UHGV virus genome: UHGV-0206080
Direction: 5' to 3' (one strand)
DNA: 33,640 nt
Origin: a virus
Shown here: positions 7,382-24,326 of the stretch, in pieces
Layout of the letters: each line of letters begins with the position of its first letter
How positions within the stretch are numbered: the first letter of the stretch is position 1
Position numbers and translations under genes: made by a program
The notes under the pieces: generated by a model
Seen by the model: the letters and a program-made list of their open reading frames with translations, nothing else
Databases searched by the model: none
What the model was told of the DNA's origin: nothing

Positions 7382-7552
7382 ATGTTTGTCAAACCTGTTA
7401 AAGGGCGGTCAGTGCCTGACCCTGCCCGCGGCGACCTTTTGCCCGCCGAAGGGCGAAATGTTGACGAGAACAACTACTGGCTGCGCCGTGAAGCAGCGGG
7501 TGATATCCGGCGCGTGAATAAAAAGGTGAACACCGATGACGATAAGCTTTAA
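7382..7552 (+). CDS. Small hypothetical protein (56 aa)
   Basis: ATG 7382 preceded by GAGGA; ends overlapping sheath start; below the ORF-track cutoff. Confidence 0.3.
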   Translation: MFVKPVKGRSVPDPARGDLLPAEGRNVDENNYWLRREAAGDIRRVNKKVNTDDDKL

Positions 7553-9032
7553 CACCATTCCGTCGAATACGCTGGTTCCGCTGTTTTATGCGGAAATGGA
7601 TAACCAGGCGGCGAATACTGCACAGGACAGCGGAGCATCGCTGCTGATTGGTCATGCCAATAACGGTGCAGAGATTGTTGCCAACAGTCTGGTGCTGATG
7701 CCGTCGGCAGACTATGCACGCCAGATTTGTGGTGCGGGAAGTCAGCTGGCGCGTATGGTCGAGGCTTATCGCCAGACTGACCCGTTTGGCGAGCTGTATG
7801 TGATTGCCGTTCCTGAATCCACAGGCGCGGCGGCAACGGTTACGCTGACGGTGACCGGGGAGGCAACCGAAACCGGCACGGTGAATGTTTATGTGGGACG
7901 TACCCGCGTGCAGGCACCGGTGACCAACGGCGATAACGTCGCGACGATTGCCAGCAGTATCAAAGATGCCATCAATGCCGTTCCGACCCTGCCGTTTACT
8001 GCCTCATCTTCGGCAGGCGTGGTCACACTGACCGCGCGTCATAAGGGGCTTTGCGGGAATGAAATTCCTGTCAGCCTCAATTACTACGGCTTTGGTGGGG
8101 GCGAAGTGCTGCCAGCGGGCGTACAGATTGCCGTGGCGACGGGGAACGCCGGAACGGGCGCTCCTGTTCTCACCGGCGCGGTGGCTGCAATGGCGGATGA
8201 GCCGTTTGATTATATCGGCCTGCCGTTCAACGACACGGCCTCCGTTAACACGCTGGTGACCGAGATGAACGATACCAGCGGTCGCTGGAGCTATGCGCGT
8301 CAGCTGTATGGTCATGTGTATACGGCAAAGATCGGCACGCTGTCAGAACTGGTGACCGCAGGTGACCAGTTTAACCAGCAGCACATTACCCTGGCGGGGT
8401 ACGAAAAAGAGACCCAGACGCCTGCCGACGAGCTGGCGGCAAGCCGTACCGCCCGCGCAGCGGTGTTTATTCGCAACGATCCGGCACGTCCCACGCAGAC
8501 CGGTGAGCTGGTGGGTATGCTGCCTGCGCCGAAGGGGAAACGGTTCACGATGACCGAACAACAGACCCTGCTGTCTCATGGCGTGGCAACGGCGTATGTC
8601 GAAAGCGGGGTGCTGCGCATTCAGCGTGATGTCACCACGTACAGGAAAAACGCTTACGGTGTTGCGGATAACAGCTACCTCGACAGCGAGACGCTGCATA
8701 CCAGCGCGTATGTGCTGCGCAAACTGAAATCCGTCATTACCAGTAAGTACGGGCGTCACAAGCTTGCCAGCGACGGTACCCGCTTTGGTCCCGGTCAGGC
8801 GATTGTCACCCCGGCGGTGATCAAAGGGGAACTGCTGGCAACCTACCGTCAGCTTGAGCGTGCGGGGATCGTGGAAAACTACGAACTGTTTAAGCAGTAC
8901 CTGGTTGTGGAGCGTGATGCCAGCGATCCGAACCGCCTGAACACGCTGTTCCCGCCTGACTATGTTAACCAGTTGCGTGTCTTTGCCGTGGTTAACCAGT
9001 TCCGTCTTCAGTATTCAGAGGAGTCTGCATAA
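7536..9032 (+). CDS. Tail sheath protein (Mu gpL-like)
   Basis: 498 aa; immediately followed by a 118-aa tube gene with start/stop overlap. Confidence 0.8.
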   Translation: MTISFNTIPSNTLVPLFYAEMDNQAANTAQDSGASLLIGHANNGAEIVANSLVLMPSADYARQICGAGSQLARMVEAYRQTDPFGELYVIAVPESTGAAATVTLTVTGEATETGTVNVYVGRTRVQAPVTNGDNVATIASSIKDAINAVPTLPFTASSSAGVVTLTARHKGLCGNEIPVSLNYYGFGGGEVLPAGVQIAVATGNAGTGAPVLTGAVAAMADEPFDYIGLPFNDTASVNTLVTEMNDTSGRWSYARQLYGHVYTAKIGTLSELVTAGDQFNQQHITLAGYEKETQTPADELAASRTARAAVFIRNDPARPTQTGELVGMLPAPKGKRFTMTEQQTLLSHGVATAYVESGVLRIQRDVTTYRKNAYGVADNSYLDSETLHTSAYVLRKLKSVITSKYGRHKLASDGTRFGPGQAIVTPAVIKGELLATYRQLERAGIVENYELFKQYLVVERDASDPNRLNTLFPPDYVNQLRVFAVVNQFRLQYSEESA

Positions 9033-9388
9033 TGGCCCGTATCGGGGGAACCTGTTATTTCAAAATTGACGGTCAGCAGCTATCGCTGACCGGCGGCATT
9101 GAGGTGCCCATGAACAGGACGGTAAATGATGACATCATCGGCCTGGACGGTTCAGTGGACCGCAAGGAAACTCACCGTGCACCTTATGTCAAAGGGACCT
9201 TCAAGGTGCCGAAGAATTTTCCGGTGAGCAAAATCACCTCGTCTGATGAGATGACCATCACTGCCGAGCTGGCGAACGGTCAGGTCTATGTATTGTCGTC
9301 TGCCTGGCTGCACGGTGAAGCGAACCATAATGCCGAAGAAGGCACGGTTGATCTTGAGTTCCACGGTGAAGAAGGGGATTACCAGTGA
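9032..9388 (+). CDS. Tail tube protein (Mu gpM-like)
   Basis: 118 aa; ATG overlaps sheath stop; canonical sheath-tube order. Confidence 0.75.
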   Translation: MARIGGTCYFKIDGQQLSLTGGIEVPMNRTVNDDIIGLDGSVDRKETHRAPYVKGTFKVPKNFPVSKITSSDEMTITAELANGQVYVLSSAWLHGEANHNAEEGTVDLEFHGEEGDYQ

Positions 9389-9708
9389 TTGAGCTTGTAC
9401 TTAAAAAACCGATCATCGCCCACAAAGAAACACTGCATGTGCTGGAAATACGTGAGCCTACGTATGACGAGATTGAGGCGCTGGGGTTCCCTTTCTCTGT
9501 TTCGCCTGATGGTGGTATGAAAATGGACAGTCAGGTGGCGCTGAAATATATCCCGCTTCTGGCCGGGATCCCGCGCTCGTCTGCAGCGCAGATGACGAAG
9601 CTGGATATTTTCAAGGCAGGCATGATTGTAATGCGTTTTTTTACCGGCTTGGAGACGGAAGAGACCTCCGGAAGCGATTCTACAATGTCGCGTGGTTCTG
9701 GAAATTAA
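9385..9708 (+). CDS. Tail assembly chaperone, with predicted -1 frameshift extension to 9800
   Basis: 107 aa ORF between tube and tape measure; T7 slippery run at 9636-9642; -1 frame stays open for 52 codons and ends at the tape measure start. Confidence 0.6.
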   Translation: MIELVLKKPIIAHKETLHVLEIREPTYDEIEALGFPFSVSPDGGMKMDSQVALKYIPLLAGIPRSSAAQMTKLDIFKAGMIVMRFFTGLETEETSGSDSTMSRGSGN

Positions 9709-9792: not shown

Positions 9793-11694
9793 ATGGCTGA
9801 TAATTTTCAGCTGAAAGCCATCATCACCGCCGTTGACAGGCTGTCCGGCCCGCTTAAAGGTATGCAGCGTCAGCTTAAGGGGTTTCAGAAAGAAGTCTCC
9901 AGCCTTGCTCTGGGCGCTGCCGGGGCGGGTACTGCAATAATGGGGGCACTGGCACTCCCTGTAAAATCAGCCATCACCCTTGAATCGAAGATGGCTGATG
10001 TCCGCAAAGTGGTGGACGGTCTGGATACGCCGGATGCGTTTAAGGCCATGACGGAGCAGGTACGCGCTTTGTCTACTGAGCTTCCCATGTCTGCAGACGG
10101 GATCGCGGAAATTGTGGCGGCTGGCGGTCAGGCCGGGATTGCACGTGATGAACTGATGCAGTTTGCCACTGATGCGGTGAAGATGGGCGTGGCCTTTGAT
10201 ACCACGGCTGAAGAGTCCGGGCAGATGATGGCCCAGTGGCGTACTGCGTTTAATATGACGCAGGATGAAGTGGCTGGGCTGGCTGACAAAATCAACTACC
10301 TTGGTAATACCGGCCCGGCGAATGCGAAGAAAATCTCCGATATTGTTACGCGTATTGGTCCTTTAGGTGGTGTTGCAGGTGTGGCTTCCGGCGAAATCGC
10401 GGCAATGGGGGCAACCATTGCCGGGATGGGCGTGGAGTCAGAAATTGCCGCCACAGGGATCAAGAACTTCATGCTTTCCCTGACCGCGGGAAATTCAGCG
10501 ACAAAATCGCAGAAACAGGCATTACGTTTTCTGCGGATCAATCCGAAGAAATTAGCTGCTGATATGCAGAAAGATGCCCGGGGAACCATGCTGTCTGTAC
10601 TGGATGCGATGGCTAAAGTGCCTAAAGAAAAACAGGCAGCTGTGCTGAATGCCCTGTTCGGGAAAGAGTCTCTGGGCGCGATAGCACCTCTGCTGACTAA
10701 CCTTGATTTGTTGCGTACCAACTTCAGGCGGGTTGCGGATTCCCAGCAGTATGGCAGTTCGATGCAGAAGGAATATGCTTCGAGGGCAGCGACGACGGAA
10801 AACCAGCTTTTACTTCTGCAAAATCAACTTGATGCCATTTCTTCCACTCTGGGGGAAACGTTTCTTCCTGAGGTTAATGATGGTCTTGAAGCGGTAAAAC
10901 CGCTCCTTGAGGAAGTGAGAACGTTTGTCCGTGAAAACCCGGAGCTCGTTAAGACCATTGCTAAAATCGGTCTGGCTTTACTGACAGTGGGGGCCGCTGC
11001 AGGCTCTTTGTCCAGAATCATGAAAGTTCTCGGCGGTGTGATGAATATGACGCCTGCTAAGGGTCTGATTGCTCTTCTGGTCGGTGCCGCTTACCTCATT
11101 ATTGATAACTGGGAAACCGTAGGTCCTGTCATAAAAAAAGTCTGGCGCGTGGTGGATGAAACGGCGCAGGCGATGGGGGGATGGGAAACTGTTCTGAAAG
11201 CGATCGCCCTGTTTATGACAACCAAATGGGTTGCTGACGTTACCAAATCCATTACCGCAGTGACCAGAGAGATGCGTACGCTGGGGAAGGTGTCGGCAGA
11301 AACGGGATTGATGGGGAAAGGCCGCGGCTTTATCGGGAAGGCCGGGGTATATGGTTTTCTGGGAACCCTGATGTATGAGCCGGTTAAAGATACTCTGGAA
11401 AGTGTTGTTCCTGAAGATACAGTTAACTGGCTGGATAATAAAGGGCTGTTTCTGGCTTCAGACTGGACGCCTTTTTTTGATCGTAAAGAGTACGAGCAGT
11501 ATCAGGCCAGCCTGAGTCAGTACAAACCCAATGTTCCGCTGTTGAATCCATCTTCTTCCATGACACAGCACAGCGAACTGAAAGTCACGTTCGAGAATGC
11601 TCCGCCAGGCATGAAGATAATTGATGTACCGGGCAAAGCCGATCCCCTGATGAAAATCACGCACGATGTGGGGTATTCTCCATTCAGGCGATAA
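9793..11694 (+). CDS. Tail tape measure protein
   Basis: 633 aa; Ala/Gly-rich with hydrophobic segments; position after chaperone. Confidence 0.85.
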   Translation: MADNFQLKAIITAVDRLSGPLKGMQRQLKGFQKEVSSLALGAAGAGTAIMGALALPVKSAITLESKMADVRKVVDGLDTPDAFKAMTEQVRALSTELPMSADGIAEIVAAGGQAGIARDELMQFATDAVKMGVAFDTTAEESGQMMAQWRTAFNMTQDEVAGLADKINYLGNTGPANAKKISDIVTRIGPLGGVAGVASGEIAAMGATIAGMGVESEIAATGIKNFMLSLTAGNSATKSQKQALRFLRINPKKLAADMQKDARGTMLSVLDAMAKVPKEKQAAVLNALFGKESLGAIAPLLTNLDLLRTNFRRVADSQQYGSSMQKEYASRAATTENQLLLLQNQLDAISSTLGETFLPEVNDGLEAVKPLLEEVRTFVRENPELVKTIAKIGLALLTVGAAAGSLSRIMKVLGGVMNMTPAKGLIALLVGAAYLIIDNWETVGPVIKKVWRVVDETAQAMGGWETVLKAIALFMTTKWVADVTKSITAVTREMRTLGKVSAETGLMGKGRGFIGKAGVYGFLGTLMYEPVKDTLESVVPEDTVNWLDNKGLFLASDWTPFFDRKEYEQYQASLSQYKPNVPLLNPSSSMTQHSELKVTFENAPPGMKIIDVPGKADPLMKITHDVGYSPFRR

Positions 11695-11723
11695 TAACCC
11701 TACTTTAATCAAGTAGGGTTATT
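11693..11723 (+). repeat. Perfect 13-bp inverted repeat (AATAACCCTACTT / AAGTAGGGTTATT) with 5-nt spacer
   Basis: Read directly from the sequence just after the tape measure stop; no T-run follows. Confidence 0.7.
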
Positions 11724-11758
11724 GAGTGGTAAAGTTTGTGCTGAATGTAGGAGAGAAT

Positions 11759-12247
11759 ATGAAGAAAATGTTTATATTGTTGTTGGCTGCAGGACTGCCA
11801 TTAAACTCCTTTGCGAAGCCAGTAACGGAAAAGCAGCTTGCTACATACTTTATAGATAACGTTAAAACTTCAGCAGATAAGAATATAGATCTAGATGTAG
11901 GTGGAATAAATAGACTGTCTGTAATATGCCCAGCAAAGTCGGCAAGTGGAACTCTTTTAATAAAAAAAGCATCCTACGAGTTTAATAAAGGTATTGGTGT
12001 TTTTGATTTTGAAAATAACTCACAATCTGCACCATTGGCTTTTATTGTACCAATTAGTGAGGATGAAAATAACTTTGACTCGGAAATTATTGGTTTCTCT
12101 TTTGCATTTAAAATGCCAAGAGGGCAATTCTTTGTTGATGTTACGAAATCAGGGAAGGTAAAGGCTGGCGTAAATATTAGTGGTGAAAGCGGAATTACTT
12201 ATTCATCATGTAGAATAGATACTCATAATGTTGATTATGATCTTTAA
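11759..12247 (+). CDS. Secreted hypothetical protein (moron) with N-terminal signal peptide
   Basis: ATG 11759 with AGGAGA RBS; MKKMFILLLAAGLPLNSFA signal-like N-terminus; strongly AT-rich relative to flanking tail genes; own terminator. Confidence 0.6.
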   Translation: MKKMFILLLAAGLPLNSFAKPVTEKQLATYFIDNVKTSADKNIDLDVGGINRLSVICPAKSASGTLLIKKASYEFNKGIGVFDFENNSQSAPLAFIVPISEDENNFDSEIIGFSFAFKMPRGQFFVDVTKSGKVKAGVNISGESGITYSSCRIDTHNVDYDL

Positions 12248-12261
12248 TTTTATTACCTAAT

Positions 12262-12290
12262 AAAAAACCGCGTTTACACGCGGTTTTTAT
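12262..12290 (+). terminator. Rho-independent terminator after moron (A-run, stem-loop, T-run)
   Basis: AAAAAACCGCG-TTTACA-CGCGGTTTTTA. Confidence 0.7.
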
Positions 12291-12303
12291 TTGAGGTGAC
12301 ACC

Positions 12304-13677
12304 ATGGATTTTTCTCATATTTCTTCGTACCTATCCTCTAATTCTCGAAGTGGCTGGCGTGAAAAGCTACTTGAAGCATCATTTCGAGGTGTGCCGTTTA
12401 AGGTTGAAGAAGAAAGTGCGGGAACCGGTCGCCGTGTGGAAACACATGAATACCCGAACCGCGACAAGCCTTATACCGAAGATCTGGGAAAAGTCACTTT
12501 CCGCCCGTCCATCACAGCTTATGTGGTGGGAGATGACTGCTTTGACCAGCGCGATCGCCTGATTGACGCGCTGAATAAACCCGGTCCCGGCACGCTTGTC
12601 CATCCGACATACGGTGAGATGAAAGTCTGTGTTGACGGGGAAGTTCGGGTCAGCACATCGAAAAGTGAAGGGCGTATTGTCCGCTTTGACCTGAAGTTTG
12701 TCGAAGCGGGAGAACTCTCTTACCCCACATCAGGTGCGGCGACGGCGCAGACGCTGATGTCATCCTGTTCTGCACTGGATGACTGCATCAGTGACAGCTT
12801 CAGCGGTTTCAGTATCGATGGCGTGGCGGATTTCGTGCAGAACGACGTTATCGGTAATGCCAGCATAATGCTGGGGTATGTTTCTGATGCGATGAAAGTG
12901 GTGGATTCTACCGTATCGGATGCCGCCAGGCTGTTGCAGGGGGATATCTCGGTACTTCTGCCGCCGCCATCGTCAGGCAAAAATTTCGTTGAGCAGGTGC
13001 AGAAAATGTGGCGTACCGGGAAACGCCTTTATGGTAACGCCAGCGACCTGGTCACCATGATCAAAACGTTTTCCGGTGTCAGCCTCGGCAGCGATCTGCA
13101 ACCGCGCGGCGTCTGGAAAACGGACAGTAAAACCACCGCCACGGCTACGCAGCAGCGTAACGTGGTTGCCAGCACCCTTCGTACGACCGCAATCAGCGAA
13201 GCGGCGTATGCCGTCACGCGATTGCCTGCGCCAACAACTTCCGCGGTGATGCAGAATTCCGCAGTGGGGCAGGCAACAACACCCGCGCAGAGCACTGGCT
13301 GGCCTGCCGTCACGCATCCGGCACTGAACAATGCACCGGCGGTGAAAAACACGGTTGACCTGCCGACGTGGGAAGAACTGACTGACATTCGCGACACACT
13401 GAATACGGCAATTGATAAGGAGTTGTCCCGTACAACCAGTGATGCGCTGTTTCTGGCGCTGCGCCGGGTGAAAGCAGATCTGAATGCGGATATCAACACG
13501 CGCCTTGAACAGTCTGCACGGATCATTCAGCGCACACCGGATGAGGTTTTACCCGCGCTGGTGCTGGCGGCGACCTGGTTTGATAACGCGGCGCGTGACG
13601 CGGACATTATCCGGCGTAATGCCATTACGCATCCCGGCTTTGTGCCGGTGATCCCTCTGAAGGTGCCAGTGCAATGA
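12304..13677 (+). CDS. DNA circulation protein (Mu gpN-like)
   Basis: 457 aa; position after tape measure in a Mu-like tail cluster. Confidence 0.7.
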   Translation: MDFSHISSYLSSNSRSGWREKLLEASFRGVPFKVEEESAGTGRRVETHEYPNRDKPYTEDLGKVTFRPSITAYVVGDDCFDQRDRLIDALNKPGPGTLVHPTYGEMKVCVDGEVRVSTSKSEGRIVRFDLKFVEAGELSYPTSGAATAQTLMSSCSALDDCISDSFSGFSIDGVADFVQNDVIGNASIMLGYVSDAMKVVDSTVSDAARLLQGDISVLLPPPSSGKNFVEQVQKMWRTGKRLYGNASDLVTMIKTFSGVSLGSDLQPRGVWKTDSKTTATATQQRNVVASTLRTTAISEAAYAVTRLPAPTTSAVMQNSAVGQATTPAQSTGWPAVTHPALNNAPAVKNTVDLPTWEELTDIRDTLNTAIDKELSRTTSDALFLALRRVKADLNADINTRLEQSARIIQRTPDEVLPALVLAATWFDNAARDADIIRRNAITHPGFVPVIPLKVPVQ

Positions 13678-14753
13678 ACGACAATGTCACGCTACGGGTA
13701 AATGGCCGGGAGTGGAATGGCTGGACATCGGTGCGCATCGGTGCCGGTATTGAACGGCTGGCGCGGGATTTCAGTGTGGAGATCACCCGCCAGTGGCCGG
13801 GTGATGAGGGTATCACCACGCTTCAGCCGCGCATTAAAAACGGTTCAAAAGTGGAAGTGCTGATTGGTGATGAGCTGGTGATCACCGGCTGGGTGGAGGC
13901 GACTCCCGTTCATTACGATGCCCGTTCGGTCAGCACCGGTATTGCCGGACGTAGTCTGACGGCTGACCTGATTGACTGTGCAGCCGAACCGACACAGTTT
14001 AACGGACGCTCGCTGGTGCAGATTGCGCAGGCGCTTGCTGCGCCTTTCGGCATTGAGGTGGTGAACAGCGGTGCGCCATCGGGTGTTATTCCTGATGTTC
14101 AGCCTGATCACGGTGAAACGGTGATTGAGGTAATCAACAAAATACTCGGTCAGCAGCAGGCACTGGCTTACGACGACCCGCACGGCAGGCTGGTGATTGG
14201 CGGTATTGGCTCAACGCGGGCACATACCGCGCTGGTACTTGGGGAAAATATCCTTTCCTGTGATACGGAGAAGAGTATCCGGGAGCGGTTTTCTGTTTAC
14301 CAGGTGGCGGGGCAGCGTGCCGGAAACGACGATGATTTCGGTGAGGCCACCACCACCGCGCTGCGGGCCCGCACAGAGGACGCATTTATTGCCCGTTACC
14401 GTCAGATGTATATCAGGCAGACAGGGCAGGCTACGGGGGCAGGCTGTATTGCGCGTGCTGACTTTGAAGCCCGACAACGGGCGGCGCGGACGGATGAAAC
14501 CACCTATGTGGTGCAGGGCTGGCGACAGGGTAACGGTACGCTGTGGCAGCCCAACCAGCGGGTGATTGTCTTTGATCCGGTCTGTGGTTTTGACAATACC
14601 GAACTGCTTGTCTCGGAAGTCACGTTTACTCAGGACCAGAACGGCACCCTGACGGAAATCCGTGTCGGCCCGCCTGATGCTTATCTGCCTGAACCCGAAG
14701 ACCCCGGCGCGCGGAAAAAGAAAAAAGCCAGAGTACAGGAGGACCCGTTCTGA
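13674..14753 (+). CDS. Baseplate hub / tail protein (Mu gpP-like)
   Basis: 359 aa; overlapping start/stop with neighbours; synteny. Confidence 0.7.
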   Translation: MNDNVTLRVNGREWNGWTSVRIGAGIERLARDFSVEITRQWPGDEGITTLQPRIKNGSKVEVLIGDELVITGWVEATPVHYDARSVSTGIAGRSLTADLIDCAAEPTQFNGRSLVQIAQALAAPFGIEVVNSGAPSGVIPDVQPDHGETVIEVINKILGQQQALAYDDPHGRLVIGGIGSTRAHTALVLGENILSCDTEKSIRERFSVYQVAGQRAGNDDDFGEATTTALRARTEDAFIARYRQMYIRQTGQATGAGCIARADFEARQRAARTDETTYVVQGWRQGNGTLWQPNQRVIVFDPVCGFDNTELLVSEVTFTQDQNGTLTEIRVGPPDAYLPEPEDPGARKKKKARVQEDPF

Positions 14754-15301
14754 TGAGGGCGATTGAAGCCATGCAGCGACAACTACTCGGCCTGATTGGG
14801 CGGGCCGTGGTGAAAAGCATCAGTGCCGCCACGAAATGTCAGACCGTGGATGTGTCCCTGATTGCCGGTGAACCCAAAGCCGGGGTTGAACATCTTGAAC
14901 CCTACGGTTTTACCGCAAGGGCAAACAGCGGTGCGGAAGCGGTGGTGTTGTTTCCGGATGGCGACCGTTCTCATGCGGTGGTTGTTACGGTGTCGGACCG
15001 GCGCTACCGCCTGAAAGGACTGCAGACGGGTGAGGTGGCTGTCTATGACGATCAGGGGCAGTCCGTGACGCTGACCCGGGAGGGGATCGTGGTGGACGGT
15101 GCAGGTAAAACGATCACGTTTCGCAATTCACCTAAAGCACGTTTTGAAATGGACCTGGAAGTGACAGGACAGGTGAAAGACCTGTGCGACTCCGGCGGCA
15201 CCACCATGTCAGCGATGCGGCTTGCCTATAACGGGCATCGTCACAGAGAGAACGGTCAGGGCAGTAACACCGACAAACCGGATAAAGCGATGGAGGCATG
15301 A
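14753..15301 (+). CDS. Baseplate assembly protein V (Mu gp45-like spike)
   Basis: 182 aa; synteny. Confidence 0.7.
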   Translation: MRAIEAMQRQLLGLIGRAVVKSISAATKCQTVDVSLIAGEPKAGVEHLEPYGFTARANSGAEAVVLFPDGDRSHAVVVTVSDRRYRLKGLQTGEVAVYDDQGQSVTLTREGIVVDGAGKTITFRNSPKARFEMDLEVTGQVKDLCDSGGTTMSAMRLAYNGHRHRENGQGSNTDKPDKAMEA

Positions 15302-17349: not shown

Positions 17350-19725
17350 ATGCATCGTATAGACACGAAAACCGCGCAGAAGGATAAGTTCGGCGCGGGT
17401 AAGAACGGTTTTACCCGTGGTAACCCCCAGACCGGCACGCCTGCCACCGATCTGGATGATGACTACTTTGACATGTTGCAGGAAGAACTTTGCAGCGTGG
17501 TGGAGGCCTCCGGTGCCAGTCTGGAGAAGGCGCGGCACGACCAGCTGCTTACCGCGCTTCGTGCGCTGCTGTTAAGCCGCAAAAATCCGTTTGGCGATAT
17601 CAAATCGGATGGCACGGTAGAACGCGCTCTTGAAAATCTGGGGTTACAGGATGTAAAAGCTGGTTCATTGAACAATCTGTACACTAACCATTCCCGTAGT
17701 GTCTTAATGGAATTGCCGTTATTATTCCCAGACTACGATACGGTGCTGGCTGCTCAGTCTGGTGCGGAATATATGTATCCACAGGGATTTGTGGTGACAG
17801 GAGAAAAAATCTATCTGAGTTATACCGTTGAGCCAAAGCAGACACGGAACGTTATAGTTCAGTACACAACATCCGGCGAATATGAGGGATATTATTATGT
17901 CGATAATGGAGGTCGTGGCGTTGTCAGCGAAGGCCTTGTGGTGACAACGGATTACGGTGGATTACGTTTGTTCATGTCAGGAGAAAATGGATTACTGAAA
18001 CAGTTTTCGCTTGATGGGGCAATTTCTGGTTCAGTATTGCCGTTAATTGATGAACATGATGTCGGTGTTTACAACCAGTTCAGCTATCGTAAAAACCGCT
18101 GGGTGGTTGAACAGTCAGCGCCGGAAGTGGGAGGCCTGATCACCCGCACAGTATTTGCGGTGTATGATTTTCAGTTTCGTCGGACAGGGACATTCACATT
18201 ACCGTTGCATGATTCCGGATATATCACGGAAAGCACAGACAGCTATGCAAGACGCTTCACAAAACGTCAGGGAATTGCTGTGGGAGACGATTATATTGCC
18301 TGTTCTTATGGTGGCTATTTTAATACCGGGGCATCAGCCGGATTTAACCAGTTTCAGGGGGTTAAGGTCTTTTCTCCGGATGGAGTAAAGCAGCAGGAAT
18401 CCATTCTTCATCCCCAAAAAATGATAGATGTGCTTACCAGGCAGGGTTTTACACCTTCGCGCATTGAGAACGAAGGAATTTGTATTTCTGACGACGGCGG
18501 CAGTATATATTCGCTTTATATCTTTCTGGAGCGTGGGTTACCACAGGCTTATCAGAAAGGAATTGTTCTGATGAAAGAGTTCAGTACTGGCAGAGATGCT
18601 ATTGATTTTCGTCAGGCAGCCTGGTTGTACACGGGGTTTGATGTGTCTCATGCCAGTATTGGAACATTTCCCCGTAGTGCCCAGGGGTTGGTAAACCCGG
18701 TGTTGGGGACGGTATTCACATCCCTGTCTGAAATTCTGGCATATATGCGTTCTGTGAGTCAGAAATGGTTTTGTCTGCATACAACCACGACACCGATTAA
18801 AGATCTGAGTGGAAATGACATTCCTGCTGACAATTATGTGTTCATCAAGAATGCTAATAACCAGACATTCTATATAACGCAGGAGTCAGCTGAAGGTGGA
18901 ATAAAATATAAAGCTGTCACTACAGACAGCGGAGAATATGGTTTTCAGCGACAAAGAGAGGCAATCTGGTCCAATGTTATCACCATCGCACAAAAGAGCG
19001 ATGGTGAGGATCAGTTTAATCGTATTATCGCTGCCTCGAAAAGTGGTTCAGGTAAAAATCAGGATAAAATACTGGTAGTTGACCAACAGGCATCAGAGGG
19101 GAATAACACGCTGGTAATTGGCGGTGGTTCATCTGTGTTCAGGTCAGCGACAGTGATTGATTTTGCAACGAATCAGGATGCAAATGCCACAGGAGGAGAA
19201 AAGAGATGGCGCATAGATTCATCAGGAAATCTCCGCCCTTATACAGATAATACGTATTCGATCGGTTATGCCTCATGGCGACCCGCACAGGTTTATTCAG
19301 CTACGGGAAGTATCAGTACATCAGACCGGACTCATAAACAGGACGAAACAATTCTGTCGGATGCAGAAAAAAGGGTTGCCAGAAAGCTGCTCGGGTATAT
19401 CTGTCGGTTCCGTTTCAGAGATGCAGTGTCCAGCAAAGGGAACGCAGCCAGATGGCATGTAGGAGTGATTGCTCAGGACGTACAGAAGGTCTTCTCTGAG
19501 GAAGGGCTGGACGCTTTTGATTACGGTATTTTGTGTCGTGATGAATATCCGGCGGAATATGAAGTGGTTTACGGGACTCGTATGGAGCTTGGTCCTGACG
19601 GACTCCTTACAATGGAAGAATACGATACCGGAGAGCGCAAGCTGGTCAGGGAGGCTGGTGAAATAATGTCTGTAAGGAATGATGAGCTGCATTATTTCAT
19701 GCTGGCATCGCTGTCTGGCCAGTGA
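17350..19725 (+). CDS. Tail fibre protein with C-terminal intramolecular chaperone-like (S74-type) domain
   Basis: 791 aa; GC-rich conserved N-terminus ([17 protein letters not shown]...), AT-rich distal part; SDRTHK motif at 19321-19338 resembles the S-D-x3-K autocleavage motif. Confidence 0.8.
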
Positions 19726-19765
19726 ATAATATTAATGTAAGGAGCGATATAAGCTCCTTACATCA

Positions 19766-19945
19766 TGCATTTTATGCTGCGATTATGCGTTCTCCTGTTG
19801 TTTGTTGCTGAGAGTGAAACACCGGAAACATACTGGTGGATTGAAATGTTCTGTGTGGCAGCGTATGAATATGTCGTGGTAGGGTGGATAAAAAATGCCC
19901 GTGATGATCCGGGCAACATAGCAGTATGCATTTTTCTATTGTGAA
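19766..19945 (+). CDS. Small hydrophobic hypothetical protein (59 aa)
   Basis: ATG at 19766; translation MHFMLRLCVLLLFVAESETPETYWWIEMFCVAAYEYVVVGWIKNARDDPGNIAVCIFLL; nearest SD (AAGGAG, 19739-19744) is 21 nt upstream and inside a hairpin. Confidence 0.25.
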
Positions 19946-20453
19946 CTGATGCATTATACAAGTAATGCTGTTATTGAGGAAAGTTTAAAGAAGCGGCTCT
20001 TCTCCGCCTGTAAAGTTTGGTCATTATTGCTTTATATATAAGTTCCACCAGTAGGCGATCATCTATGATGTTGGCATATCGACTTTGTATAAGAGGTTTC
20101 CGGTCGGAGATAAATGAAACCGTAGCACGTCGTATGCAAGAACGTGCCACGGCTGGCTGGCGAACTTTCGATAGTGCGAGTATTGAATGATTTCCAGCTG
20201 TTACTGATTTTATATAACTGCAGTGGAATTATTCAACACACAGGCAAAACGGAATAAGCTGAGAAAAAAAAGCGTGCTTTCCCAATCTGGGGTAAATCAC
20301 ATCTGAATGACACCTGAAAACAGGTGGTGGCCTCAAGAAGGCTTGGAATATTCTTCTTTAATGTTATGTAATTTATTGATTTTTCGTGTACGATTTTAAG
20401 ACATTTATTCCAAGAAAAATTTTTAACTCTTTGATTTTTCGACTCTGTATCAT

Positions 20454-20515
20454 CGGTCTCGAAAACCGGAGTGGGGGCAACTCCACCGGGGGTTCAAATC
20501 CCCCTCTCTCCGCCA
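20454..20515 (+). other. attP core: 3' portion of a tRNA-Ser gene (anticodon loop CGA region through T-arm and CCA)
   Basis: GGTCTCGAAAACCGGAG...GGGGGTTCAAATCCCCCTCTCTCCGCCA matches tRNA-Ser with long variable arm; no 5' half upstream. Confidence 0.75.
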
Positions 20516-20560
20516 AAATTCAATCACTTACACATCATTAAGTCAGTGACAAAAATCACA

Positions 20561-20594
20561 CTTGGAATTACTTGGAATATTGTCTTGGAATATT
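20561..20594 (+). repeat. Three direct CTTGGAAT(A/T) repeats, putative arm-type integrase binding sites; further copies at 20342-20350 and inverted at 20406-20414
   Basis: Read directly; repeats flank the tRNA-derived core and overlap the integrase 3' end. Confidence 0.5.
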
Positions 20595-21854: not shown

Positions 21855-24326
21855 TTAAAAATCAGCCTGACTCGGGATCAGTTTTTGCCAGATAGCTGAA
21901 ACGTATTTTGCCTGGTAACGGGCGTCATCAAGTGCATTATGGCGCTCACCTTCGAATGGAATAGCCGTTCTGGCATCGAAGTCTATGGCTTTCCCCAGCT
22001 CAACGATTGTGCGTACATCGCGATCGTTGTAGTAACGCCACGGGCAGGGGATCCCCTGCCGTTCGTATGAACGGCGCAAAATTGTGTTGTCGAAGTTGGC
22101 TCCATTTCCCCAGACCTGAACAAAAAATTCACCGGAGTTTTCGTCGATAAATTCCCGCAATTGTAACAGTGCATCATCTAACGGGATTTCATCGGTCATA
22201 ATGGCAGATTGCGCCTCCCGTGATTGCTTAAGCCACCATTTAATGGTGCCACGATCAATGACTCCGCCAGCAGTATCCATATCGATGGTCTTACTAAATT
22301 CCGGCCCCATATCTCCGGTTTGCGGATCGAAAAATATTGCACCTATTGAGATAAGCGGGGCATCGGGATTTTTTCCCATGGTTTCAAGGTCGATCATCAT
22401 GTGGTGCCACATTCTGCTGGTGGATGTGATTTTATGATGACCGTTCATGGTAATTAAGGGATTTGCCGTCCCGCCAGCTTCATTATCGCTGGTGTGATGC
22501 TGATTACCGTCAGCGTTCTCTTTGTGCGGATATTCAACACGTTCCATTTCCTCCGGATCATTTTCCTGAACTTCAACCTGATTCTCTTCATTGAATGTTT
22601 CCTGGTATGTTGCGTCACCCATCACCGCGCCACAATCAGGGCTGTTGCCGCCACCGCTTTGACCGCAGGCGGTGCAGACTTTTTCCGGTTCCTGTTGCGC
22701 TACTGGCTCAGGTTGTTTCGTTTCTGGCTCGTTTTGTTGCGTATTTGGGCTGTTTTGTTCCGCTTTCTGGTCGTTCTGTTCCGATTCTTGCTGGTTCTGG
22801 TTTACAGAATCGCGGGTTTCAATCCCCTTTACCCATTTCGGATCATTCGGGTCGCTAATCCCTGCAACAAATTCTCCGCGAGAGGCAGCAAGCAACTTAT
22901 CGGCGTCAGGCTGGCTGATATTAGCTGCCTGCATAATTTTGTTTACTTCGTCAGCGGTAACTTTTACCGGCTCTGGTTGTGCGGTCGTGTCAGATGCACC
23001 AGTATTTTGTTGTGAACCTGAGTACGTGCCGTTTTTACGTGCGAAGTATTCCTCTTTTGTGATTTCCGTAGCTCCCAAGGCTAGTGCTTTTTCCAGACCA
23101 GAAAGTTTGTTTGCGCGACCGTATTTTTCGCCATCCTTGTCGGTGAAGAGGAAGTAGAACGGCCCCTCACGCTCTACAGATGGTTCGACTTCCACTTTGC
23201 ATTCGGTTTTTTCGTTGTCCGGAATTGCCGTTTCCACTGCATCAGTTTCTGGTACTGGCGACGAGAGAGTATCAGTTGCGCTCTGATTTCTTCCTTCATC
23301 TTCAAACACGCCCTTTGTAGTCAGGTATTCAGTAATGTATTTGTTCAGTGCCACAGGGTCTTTGTGAATGTCGATCGGACGTTCACGGACAAGGCCAAAA
23401 ATAGTCTGGCGGTCGTAGCGAAGGACATCAGGCTGTTTGCGCATTGATGCCGAGATACGCTTCCAGTCTTCGCGGTCGTTGTCGATAACTTCATTTTTTG
23501 CCCAGCGATGGATGCTGCCGTCAATGTTTCCGGTATCAATATCGCCAGGCCAGAGAGCGTAGGCCAGTTCTTCATCCAGCGTTTTCCATGTCTGCTTGTA
23601 TTCGCGACAAATGGCGGCAGTGACTGGGTTGATTTTTCCTGCTGAGTTTTCAGTGTTCTGTTGATTGACTCTGGCGCTGGCGAGATCAACAACAGACGTG
23701 TATTTTCCAGTCTCTTTGCGCTCTGCGTCCTGCCGTTTTTTCCAGTTACGTAATTCAGCCTGAATTTCGGGCCATTTGGCACCCGGATTACATTTGTGTT
23801 TAACCCATCCGATAGCGAACAGTTTGCGTTCCGGATACATAGCGTTAATTTCAGGCGTTTTCATCAGTGCTTCAACGATATGCCCGTCAAAGGTAGCAAC
23901 GTCTTCCTGCAGTAATTCCTGCGCGTCAATCGCCATATCAACGGTGATGTTTTCACATGTACCGAACTTAACCAGGACCGCGTTCTGTACTTCAAGGGAC
24001 AGCTTGTCAAAATTGACGTTCATCGGATCGGATTCTGGTTCGACCGGAATAAAGGAAGCGGATTCCTCATCCCAGCGGTTTTCCTGCATATATTCAGCAT
24101 CCCAGGAATCGAGGGCAGGGCGGGGTATACCGGGTTTATCCTCGCAGACAAGAAATTTATAAGCGCAGTCCTGAGCAGCCGGATAATGTTCCAGGAATTG
24201 CCAGTGAAATTTTGCGCGGGCGCGACGTTCATCACCGGCTTCAATGGCAGTGGCTACAGCGACGGCACCTTCTTCCTTTATTGCCTGTTCGTCCGGAATG
24301 GCGGCGCAAATAAAGACTTTACTCAT
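21855..24326 (-). CDS. Exonuclease: RecE-like N-terminal/middle region fused to a C-terminal DnaQ-like DEDDh 3'-5' exonuclease domain
   Basis: 823 aa; C-terminal motifs MIDLETMG, WGNGANFDN, HNALDDARYQ; KLLAASRGEFVAGISDPNDPKWVKGI segment recalled from RecE-family proteins; Q/E/N-rich linker. Confidence 0.75.
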   Translation of the reverse strand: MSKVFICAAIPDEQAIKEEGAVAVATAIEAGDERRARAKFHWQFLEHYPAAQDCAYKFLVCEDKPGIPRPALDSWDAEYMQENRWDEESASFIPVEPESDPMNVNFDKLSLEVQNAVLVKFGTCENITVDMAIDAQELLQEDVATFDGHIVEALMKTPEINAMYPERKLFAIGWVKHKCNPGAKWPEIQAELRNWKKRQDAERKETGKYTSVVDLASARVNQQNTENSAGKINPVTAAICREYKQTWKTLDEELAYALWPGDIDTGNIDGSIHRWAKNEVIDNDREDWKRISASMRKQPDVLRYDRQTIFGLVRERPIDIHKDPVALNKYITEYLTTKGVFEDEGRNQSATDTLSSPVPETDAVETAIPDNEKTECKVEVEPSVEREGPFYFLFTDKDGEKYGRANKLSGLEKALALGATEITKEEYFARKNGTYSGSQQNTGASDTTAQPEPVKVTADEVNKIMQAANISQPDADKLLAASRGEFVAGISDPNDPKWVKGIETRDSVNQNQQESEQNDQKAEQNSPNTQQNEPETKQPEPVAQQEPEKVCTACGQSGGGNSPDCGAVMGDATYQETFNEENQVEVQENDPEEMERVEYPHKENADGNQHHTSDNEAGGTANPLITMNGHHKITSTSRMWHHMMIDLETMGKNPDAPLISIGAIFFDPQTGDMGPEFSKTIDMDTAGGVIDRGTIKWWLKQSREAQSAIMTDEIPLDDALLQLREFIDENSGEFFVQVWGNGANFDNTILRRSYERQGIPCPWRYYNDRDVRTIVELGKAIDFDARTAIPFEGERHNALDDARYQAKYVSAIWQKLIPSQADF

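Follow-up and report, generated by a model that had tools for sequence, protein, structure and literature searches.

Small phage proteins that are sent to the cell envelope and block adsorption or DNA entry there include T4 Spackle, T5 Llp, phi80/N15 Cor and P22 SieA, and some of them are encoded near tail genes. Phage genes of the moron type (Juhala/Hendrix) are recognized by i) presence or absence among relatives, ii) deviant base composition, iii) a terminator of their own, iv) a promoter of their own, and v) expression from the repressed prophage (PMC3594210). The closest described case, the HK97 moron encoding gp15, adjoins the tape-measure gene, and its product is located in the envelope and blocks genome entry in a tail-dependent manner (Juhala 2000; Cumby 2012, in PMC3594210); a promoter and lysogenic expression have been reported for it (PMC3594210). 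Here we describe a small gene, called the accessory gene below, that lies between the tape-measure and DNA-circulation genes of the virus genome UHGV-0206080, the whole of which (33,640 nucleotides) is referred to as the window. The gene is a moron-type accessory gene. The reading we favour, to which we give about an even chance, is that it forms a cassette whose exported barrel protein is dispensable for virions and has a role in the envelope of the carrier cell.

The likeness to HK97 gp15 is that of a single small gene in a tail operon beside the tape measure, absent from close relatives, deviant in GC content and encoding an envelope-targeted product. However, gp15, from a siphovirus, belongs to the YebO family of small proteins in the inner membrane and is encoded upstream of the tape-measure gene, whereas the accessory protein, from a contractile-tail phage, is a predicted soluble barrel with a cleaved signal peptide whose gene lies downstream of that for the tape measure, and the two have no sequence or fold relationship. 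As to the other envelope proteins, T5 Llp and Cor are lipoproteins, whereas the window protein has no lipobox; T4 Spackle is helical and P22 SieA is an integral membrane protein, unlike the soluble barrel predicted here. Homology to these four was not detected in Pfam, NCBIfam, PADLOC and PDB sequence searches.

The window represents the genome of a temperate, SfV/SfIV-like phage that has a Mu-type contractile tail, and close relatives either have or lack the accessory gene at the same position. In SfIV the flanks are ~97% identical, the accessory gene is missing and the junction is 576 bp shorter (1625 bp of SfIV match 2201 bp of the window). SfV has a 45-nucleotide (nt) gap at the junction and no accessory gene, and the gene is absent from all of the infectious phages SfIV, SfV, SfII and SfI. 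It was found in 101 of 5426 complete Escherichia coli genomes, as compared with 1094 that carry a closely related DNA-circulation gene, and, to judge by genomes sampled at even spacing along the ranking, SfIV-type junctions lacking the gene are about as frequent as junctions that have it. Only one of 50,697 phage records contained a member of the family (phrog_5586, see below). The window region itself recurs with 100% identity in chromosomal prophages of E. coli from humans and wastewater, e.g. DA33137, in which the accessory open reading frame (ORF) is annotated as WP_001566765.1, "hypothetical protein", and it is 97.8% identical to phage vB_EcoM-720R4 (720R4). A further copy of the gene (95.7% amino acid identity) was seen on a 205-kb conjugative plasmid of a chicken E. 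coli (H96; NZ_CP126947.1, 186075-186557).

Base composition deviates in the same place. The accessory gene has 34.2% GC against 54.4% in its flanks, within a trough of 33–36% over positions ~11700-12400, and the contrast recurs in all the alleles found in the tail slot of other phages (35–40% against flanks of 47–56%). The ORF comprises 162 codons and a stop, has no competing ORF on the opposite strand, and is uninterrupted in 23 of 23 close loci, which represent 10 nucleotide alleles. The original prediction, made from the sequence of the window, had been of a secreted-protein moron in the tail module, and this label is right in broad terms: the gene is AT-rich in a GC-rich module, it lies between the tape-measure and DNA-circulation genes (identified by their PF10145 and PF07157 matches), it is followed by a predicted intrinsic terminator, and its moron-type accessory nature is borne out by its absence from SfIV and SfV. 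The predicted ORF was also correct, although its product has 162 rather than 163 amino acids (aa).

The terminator is predicted from a hairpin and T-tract. The arms of the hairpin (12263-12273 and 12278-12288) are 11/11 complementary, enclose a 4-nt loop and are followed by TTTTTATTT; the structure has a folding energy of -15.8 kcal/mol (z-score -4.5), and none of 200 shuffled sequences was as stable. A simple consensus terminator scanner did not call it, apparently because the stem runs into A/T tracts, and Rfam gave only matches below threshold on this hairpin (Leu_leader, 26.7 bits against a gathering score of 50). Among the 23 close loci the hairpin is near-identical, with single-base variants, while all the divergent tail-slot alleles have their own hairpin and T-tract of unrelated sequence, and a predicted terminator also follows the homologues found in phage-plasmids. 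Thus, the predicted downstream terminator is conserved in function, not in sequence, across the alleles. SfV, which is without the accessory gene, has its own terminator-like hairpin and T-run at the junction (locus L003, 2938-2960; -12.6 kcal/mol, z-score -2.9), and the tape measure/DNA-circulation junction may be a natural partial-termination point in the late operons of SfV-like phages.

The segment in which the window is unlike SfIV extends beyond the gene, running from the last tape-measure codons through the accessory gene to ~23–29 codons into the DNA-circulation gene (end at ~12373-12390), and matches to SfV-type genomes start at 12373/12379. Since the exchanged segment is larger than the gene, the immediate event was a recombination in which one of the related phages involved already had the gene; a de novo insertion as the immediate event was rejected because the segment spans parts of both neighbouring genes. 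The comparison with related tails that had been proposed as a check on insertion therefore supports extra DNA relative to SfIV but not a fresh insertion, as diverged alleles occupy the same slot. In its first ~23 codons the DNA-circulation gene is unlike SfIV or SfV, the extension that they encode differs between phage lineages, and it appears to travel with the accessory cassette.

The accessory protein belongs to a very small family. When 1.84 billion representative proteins were searched exhaustively with HMMER, there were 17 matches, several of them fragments, and word-indexed searches gave 10 and 16. Two kinds of context were found: 1) Divergent alleles, of about 37–64% aa identity, occupy the same tape measure/DNA-circulation slot in other SfV-like tail modules. 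They include P0007 (49% identity; Shigella flexneri and 11 E. coli genomes), P0011 (46%), P0026 (39%), P0015 (36%) and another allele, which shares 64% identity with P0011. 2) Homologues of 23–30% identity (P0019, P0020 and P0023) lie in the maintenance regions of phage-plasmid-like contigs, not in tail modules, beside genes for IncFII RepA, ParA, MazEF or Gp49/HTH (helix-turn-helix) toxin-antitoxin pairs and a CI-like repressor, and have host-like GC contents. Relatives of P0023 were not found in IMG/VR, and the single PLSDB match was a window-type gene. Weak HMMER matches to the large repeat proteins P0021, P0022 and P0025 were rejected as spurious, as they involve cadherin-like or other repeats on short beta-stretches, or the leader. 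Two phage-plasmid homologues share a near-palindromic AT-rich motif just upstream, TTAAATAAATATTTAA (L034, 2870-2905; L038, 690-725), which may be a regulated promoter or operator; the tail-slot alleles are preceded by nothing resembling it. The insertion sequence IS1 splits the DNA-circulation gene just after the 49% allele in Shigella flexneri and one E. coli (L004/L005, 6520-7270).

The original prediction had recognized no family for the product. There is one, phrog_5586 (PHROGs v4), whose profile matches residues 1–161 of the protein over positions 1–161 of 161 (E value 2.1e-82, 275.7 bits); it has no assigned function, and no other library gave a match, so that the statement is nearly right. 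The phrog_5586 entry describes neither the fold nor the conservation of the slot nor the homologues in phage-plasmids, all of which come from the present analysis.

The accessory gene is not a recent arrival. When six modules were compared using the sheath, tube, tape measure, DNA-circulation, gpP and gp45 genes together with the accessory gene, the accessory protein was the most divergent in 14 of 15 pairs (37–49% identity, against 48–89% for the others); the exception is the near-identical pair L028/L029, in which the tape measure and gp45 differ more. In the more closely related pair L036/L042, the accessory protein shares 64% identity, as compared with 81–92% for the other module genes. 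Since it is the most divergent protein in nearly all pairs, these alignments indicate that the gene is an old resident of the slot, which has co-diverged with the module at roughly twice the rate of its neighbours. Such fast evolution, seen also in the dN/dS value given below, is what one would expect if the protein took part in an arms race or in interaction with the host. Conservation is nevertheless strong at particular sites, the motifs KASYEF, GVFDF, FKMPxGQFFVD and AGVNxxGESG and two cysteines being retained down to 23% identity.

A constant position in several diverged SfV-like tail modules would also be compatible with a structural or assembly component of the tail, associated for example with the tape measure or the baseplate. 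We consider this extremely unlikely, because homologues stand outside tail modules in phage-plasmids, because a cleavable signal peptide would take the protein out of the cytoplasm, where tails are assembled, and because the gene is missing from infectious relatives; its composition is also foreign to the module. A conserved tail component in related phages, named in the original prediction as the finding that would speak against it, was thus not seen in SfIV, SfV, SfII or SfI.

The protein is predicted to be exported. Its N-terminus (MKKMFILLLAAGLPLNSFA, followed by K) has a basic n-region (MKK), an h-region (MFILLLAAGLPL) that is the sole hydrophobic segment of the protein (maximum Kyte-Doolittle hydropathy 2.76), and a c-region ending in NSFA ahead of K20, with S at -3 and A at -1; residues A19 and K20 are unchanged in the aligned P0007 and P0001, and the full-length homologues have an N-terminal hydrophobic leader. 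The n-h-c organization, the small residues at -3 and -1 and the lack of a further transmembrane segment fit, at the level of sequence, export by Sec and cleavage by signal peptidase I (SPase I). The residues at -3 and -1, together with the absence of cysteine, make the signal one of the SPase I type and not that of a lipoprotein; no lipobox is present in the window protein, which has no Cys in residues 1–56. The signal-peptide-like N-terminus without a lipobox Cys noted originally is therefore supported by these features. In P0007 (L004), residues 12–16 within the signal peptide read LTSCC, which fits a lipobox, and this allele might be lipidated, unlike that of the window.

Structure prediction, one of the checks suggested with the original prediction, gave a confident model. 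A single-sequence AlphaFold model was poor (predicted local distance difference test score, pLDDT, 47.5) and was replaced by an AlphaFold2 model based on an alignment of 10 sequences (pLDDT 86.4, predicted template modelling score 0.79), in which the signal peptide is followed by helix 24–41 and eight beta-strands forming a barrel. Cys57 lies after the first barrel strand and Cys151 in the last, both are conserved in the family, and in the model a Cys57-Cys151 disulfide probably staples the barrel; a barrel-closing disulfide would fit a periplasmic location. The mature protein is hydrophilic and acidic (grand average of hydropathy -0.15), and we infer that it is soluble and periplasmic. An eight-stranded outer-membrane barrel (Lom/Ail/OmpX) was considered and rejected: there is no Pfam match, the C-termini are variable and non-aromatic (…VDYDL, …INDD, …IVKPS), the protein is hydrophilic and it has the conserved Cys residues. 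The hydrophilic mature part and the lack of a conserved C-terminal aromatic residue argue in particular against a barrel of the Lom/Ail type.

Several observations weigh against the favoured reading, and the first of them concern transcription. A sigma-70 consensus scan of the sequence preceding the gene found no promoter on the + strand, either in the window or in three further alleles. The sole promoter-like element in the gap, the extended -10-like motif TGgTAAAGT, has a position weight matrix (PWM) score of 6.7, which ranks near the 99.96th percentile among all window sites, and is hence undistinguished. In the allele of L039 the ATG is only 16 nt past the tape-measure stop, and therefore the gene may be merely co-transcribed with the late operon.

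The perfect 13-bp inverted repeat upstream of the gene would fold in RNA at -18.5 kcal/mol (z-score -7.05; 0 of 200 shuffles as stable). Among the 23 close loci, it is perfect in 9, has 3 mismatches in 13 and has lost its left arm in 1. The 3-mismatch form is far less stable (-7.4 kcal/mol, z-score -1.7) and its mismatches are uncompensated. The truncated copy (L008, 5880-6000; IMGVR_UViG_2778261416_000006) is cut at the loop by a deletion that joins the Rz/Rz1 lysis genes to the accessory gene; this locus is a prophage remnant that lacks the terminase, the head genes and the tail genes as far as the tape measure but retains the accessory and baseplate genes, and the deletion endpoint falls exactly in the hairpin loop. 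The repeat was rejected as an operator of the phage repressor, since its half-site does not recur elsewhere in the window at 0 or 1 mismatch, and as a conserved element of the cassette, since it is degraded in most close relatives and shows no compensatory changes. The hairpin is incidental and lineage-specific and lies outside the conserved cassette. Thus, the perfect repeat noted in the original prediction exists at the positions given there, but the "classic moron architecture implying independent expression" is not upheld: without a convincing promoter in any allele, and with the upstream hairpin degraded in most close relatives, independent lysogenic expression is more than the sequence supports.

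These observations would suit a periplasmic factor whose gene, without a dedicated promoter, is read only as part of the antiterminated late tail operon and which acts in lytic growth, where it might prevent re-adsorption to or superinfection of the infected cell, mask receptors on debris (as does T5 Llp) or condition the envelope before lysis. Besides the missing promoter and the 16-nt gap of L039, this explanation draws on the late-operon orientation, tight spacing and strong Shine-Dalgarno sequence, and on the long-term synteny and co-divergence with the tail module. On the other hand, in every allele a strong predicted terminator stands before essential baseplate genes, which is easier to understand if some transcripts must stop, an argument tempered by the hairpin that SfV has at the junction even without the gene, and the distant homologues lie beside parA, toxin-antitoxin and repressor genes in phage-plasmids and not in late operons. 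On this balance, we regard a purely late role as unlikely.

The next of the adverse observations concern selection. Between the window and 720R4 the synonymous divergence of the accessory, tape-measure and DNA-circulation genes is alike (0.024–0.033), and the ratio of nonsynonymous to synonymous rates (dN/dS) is 0.82, 0.11 and 0.22, respectively; the value of 0.82 comes from only 10 substitutions and fits relaxed constraint equally. The divergence of the accessory gene does not co-vary with that of the tape-measure or DNA-circulation gene and therefore gives no support for an interaction specific to the tape measure. A decaying or selfish hitch-hiker without current function, kept because the junction tolerates extra DNA, is favoured by the dN/dS of ~0.8 among close alleles and by occasional damaged copies: the metagenome proteins P0002, P0003 and P0005 are deleted in frame or interrupted, IS1 lies inside the 5' end of the accessory gene in L031 (5287-5984), and L043 has a premature stop. 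Many relatives also do without the gene at no evident cost. Yet none of the 23 close loci has a damaged ORF, and it is also intact in at least five classes of divergent alleles, the motifs and both cysteines persist across the family, and a confident AlphaFold model obtained from only 10 sequences implies a conserved fold, so that we hold this explanation to be very improbable.

The last concern function. Scans of the protein and 11 family members against Pfam, NCBIfam and PADLOC found nothing meaningful (the best NCBIfam match was below threshold, with an E value of 0.095 and 12 bits against a cut-off of 376), PDB sequence searches with the family profile and P0023 gave only matches at E values of 0.2 or above, and these four resources gave no sequence match to described defence or exclusion families. 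Structural comparison of the model gave no close or informative neighbour, and literature searches by accession, PHROG and phage name returned nothing relevant on the accessory protein. An exclusion function is therefore proposed by analogy.

In topology, the model resembles MoaF-like proteins (4q51/5hal), avidins, PliC/MliC and Gid4, which share an up-and-down eight-stranded barrel of ~100–140 residues. This likeness admits a host-fitness or virulence cargo, i.e. a periplasmic calycin-like barrel that binds a small hydrophobic ligand or inhibits a host enzyme such as lysozyme and would aid survival of the lysogen in the gut or animal host, unrelated to conflict between phages. The PliC/MliC lysozyme inhibitors are periplasmic too; the window protein did not match their family model with its conserved inhibitory motifs. 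We see such a cargo function as doubtful, if worth keeping in mind.

In the favoured reading of a moron-type cassette acting in the envelope, the gene and its own terminator would reside in the junction gap of a subset of SfV/SfIV-like phages, and we infer that it would be expressed from the prophage. The Sec signal peptide would be cleaved and the ~15.6-kDa product released into the periplasm, where, being dispensable for virion assembly, it would bind a protein or ligand and exclude superinfecting phages or otherwise alter the envelope in a way that benefits the lysogen. At the terminator, transcripts that are not antiterminated would end before they reach the baseplate genes, and the antiterminated late transcript would read through it, as is the case in lambdoid late regulation; a Q-like antiterminator is annotated in the SfIV record, in a region outside the window. 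Most plausibly, by analogy, the function is superinfection exclusion, since the protein is predicted to be exported, evolves fast and is found in phage-plasmid maintenance regions, and since HK97 gp15 provides a precedent.

The coordinates of the features at the locus are given in Table 1. Some other regions of the window are worth noting. The tail-fibre protein (17350-19725; 791 aa) carries a C-terminal Peptidase_S74 intramolecular chaperone domain, and in the DA33137 prophage the tail-fibre region is annotated as a split/pseudogenised stfP and a separate tail-fibre gene. The tail-fibre gene and the integrase gene are only ~840 bp apart (19725-20568), and part of this interval matches nearly all E. 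coli genomes; in contrast to SfIV and SfV, it is without gtrA, gtrB or gtr-type O-antigen modification genes. There is no tRNA gene in the window. An early-region protein of 823 aa (21855-24326, - strand) has as its sole Pfam match a C-terminal Rv2179c-like 3'-5' exoribonuclease domain (E value 3e-66), its N-terminal ~640 residues being without a Pfam match.

Table 1. Features at the tape measure/DNA-circulation junction and neighbouring tail genes of the window
Feature	Position	Strand	Remarks
Accessory gene, coding sequence	11759-12247	+	162-aa precursor, predicted exported; phrog_5586; identical to RefSeq WP_001566765.1
Predicted signal peptide	11759-11815	+	Residues 1-19, MKKMFILLLAAGLPLNSFA; SPase I site between A19 and K20; no lipobox
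Mature protein	11816-12244	+	143 aa, 15.6 kDa, isoelectric point 5.1; predicted helix 24-41, then eight-stranded beta-barrel
Intrinsic-terminator-like hairpin	12263-12292	+	Core CCGCGT-TTAC-ACGCGG, A-tract before, TTTTTATTT after
Segment unlike SfIV	11679-12390	+	From alignment with SfIV, SfV and 720R4; net extra 576 bp
Perfect 13-bp inverted repeat	11693-11705 / 11711-11723	+	13/13 complementary, 5-nt loop; overlaps tape-measure stop
Weak extended -10-like motif TGgTAAAGT	11727-11735	+	Best intergenic PWM candidate; low confidence
Shine-Dalgarno sequence AGGAG	11749-11753	+	5 nt before ATG; read from sequence
AT-rich 5' end of DNA-circulation gene	12304-12373	+	Variable Ser-rich N-terminal extension before DNA_circ_N
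Sheath gene	7536-9032		
Tube gene	9032-9388		
Tail assembly chaperone gene	9385-9708		
Tape measure gene	9793-11694		PhageMin_Tail, PF10145, E value 2e-42; stop codon 11692-11694
DNA-circulation gene	12304-13677		DNA_circ_N, PF07157, E value 2.5e-34; domain from residue 22
Baseplate hub gpP-like gene	13674-14753		
gp45-like gene	14753-15301		

As it stands, the accessory gene is one uncharacterised moron among many. The locus nevertheless illustrates well how a fast-evolving accessory gene can persist for long, kept at one tail-operon junction through recombination among related phages. A bolder proposal, which we advance tentatively and with low confidence, is that the family is a new class of soluble periplasmic exclusion proteins of SfV/Mu-type temperate phages and enterobacterial phage-plasmids, in which a disulfide-stapled barrel intercepts the incoming penetration machinery; its targets would be, for example, the ejected tape measure, the tail-tip complex or the cell-wall hydrolase, and its diversification would reflect an arms race. 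If phage entry is indeed blocked from the periplasm in this way, the exclusion family would be mechanistically new, it would matter for phage therapy of clinical E. coli and Shigella in which these prophages reside, and the fixed genomic slot would ease the mining of further alleles.

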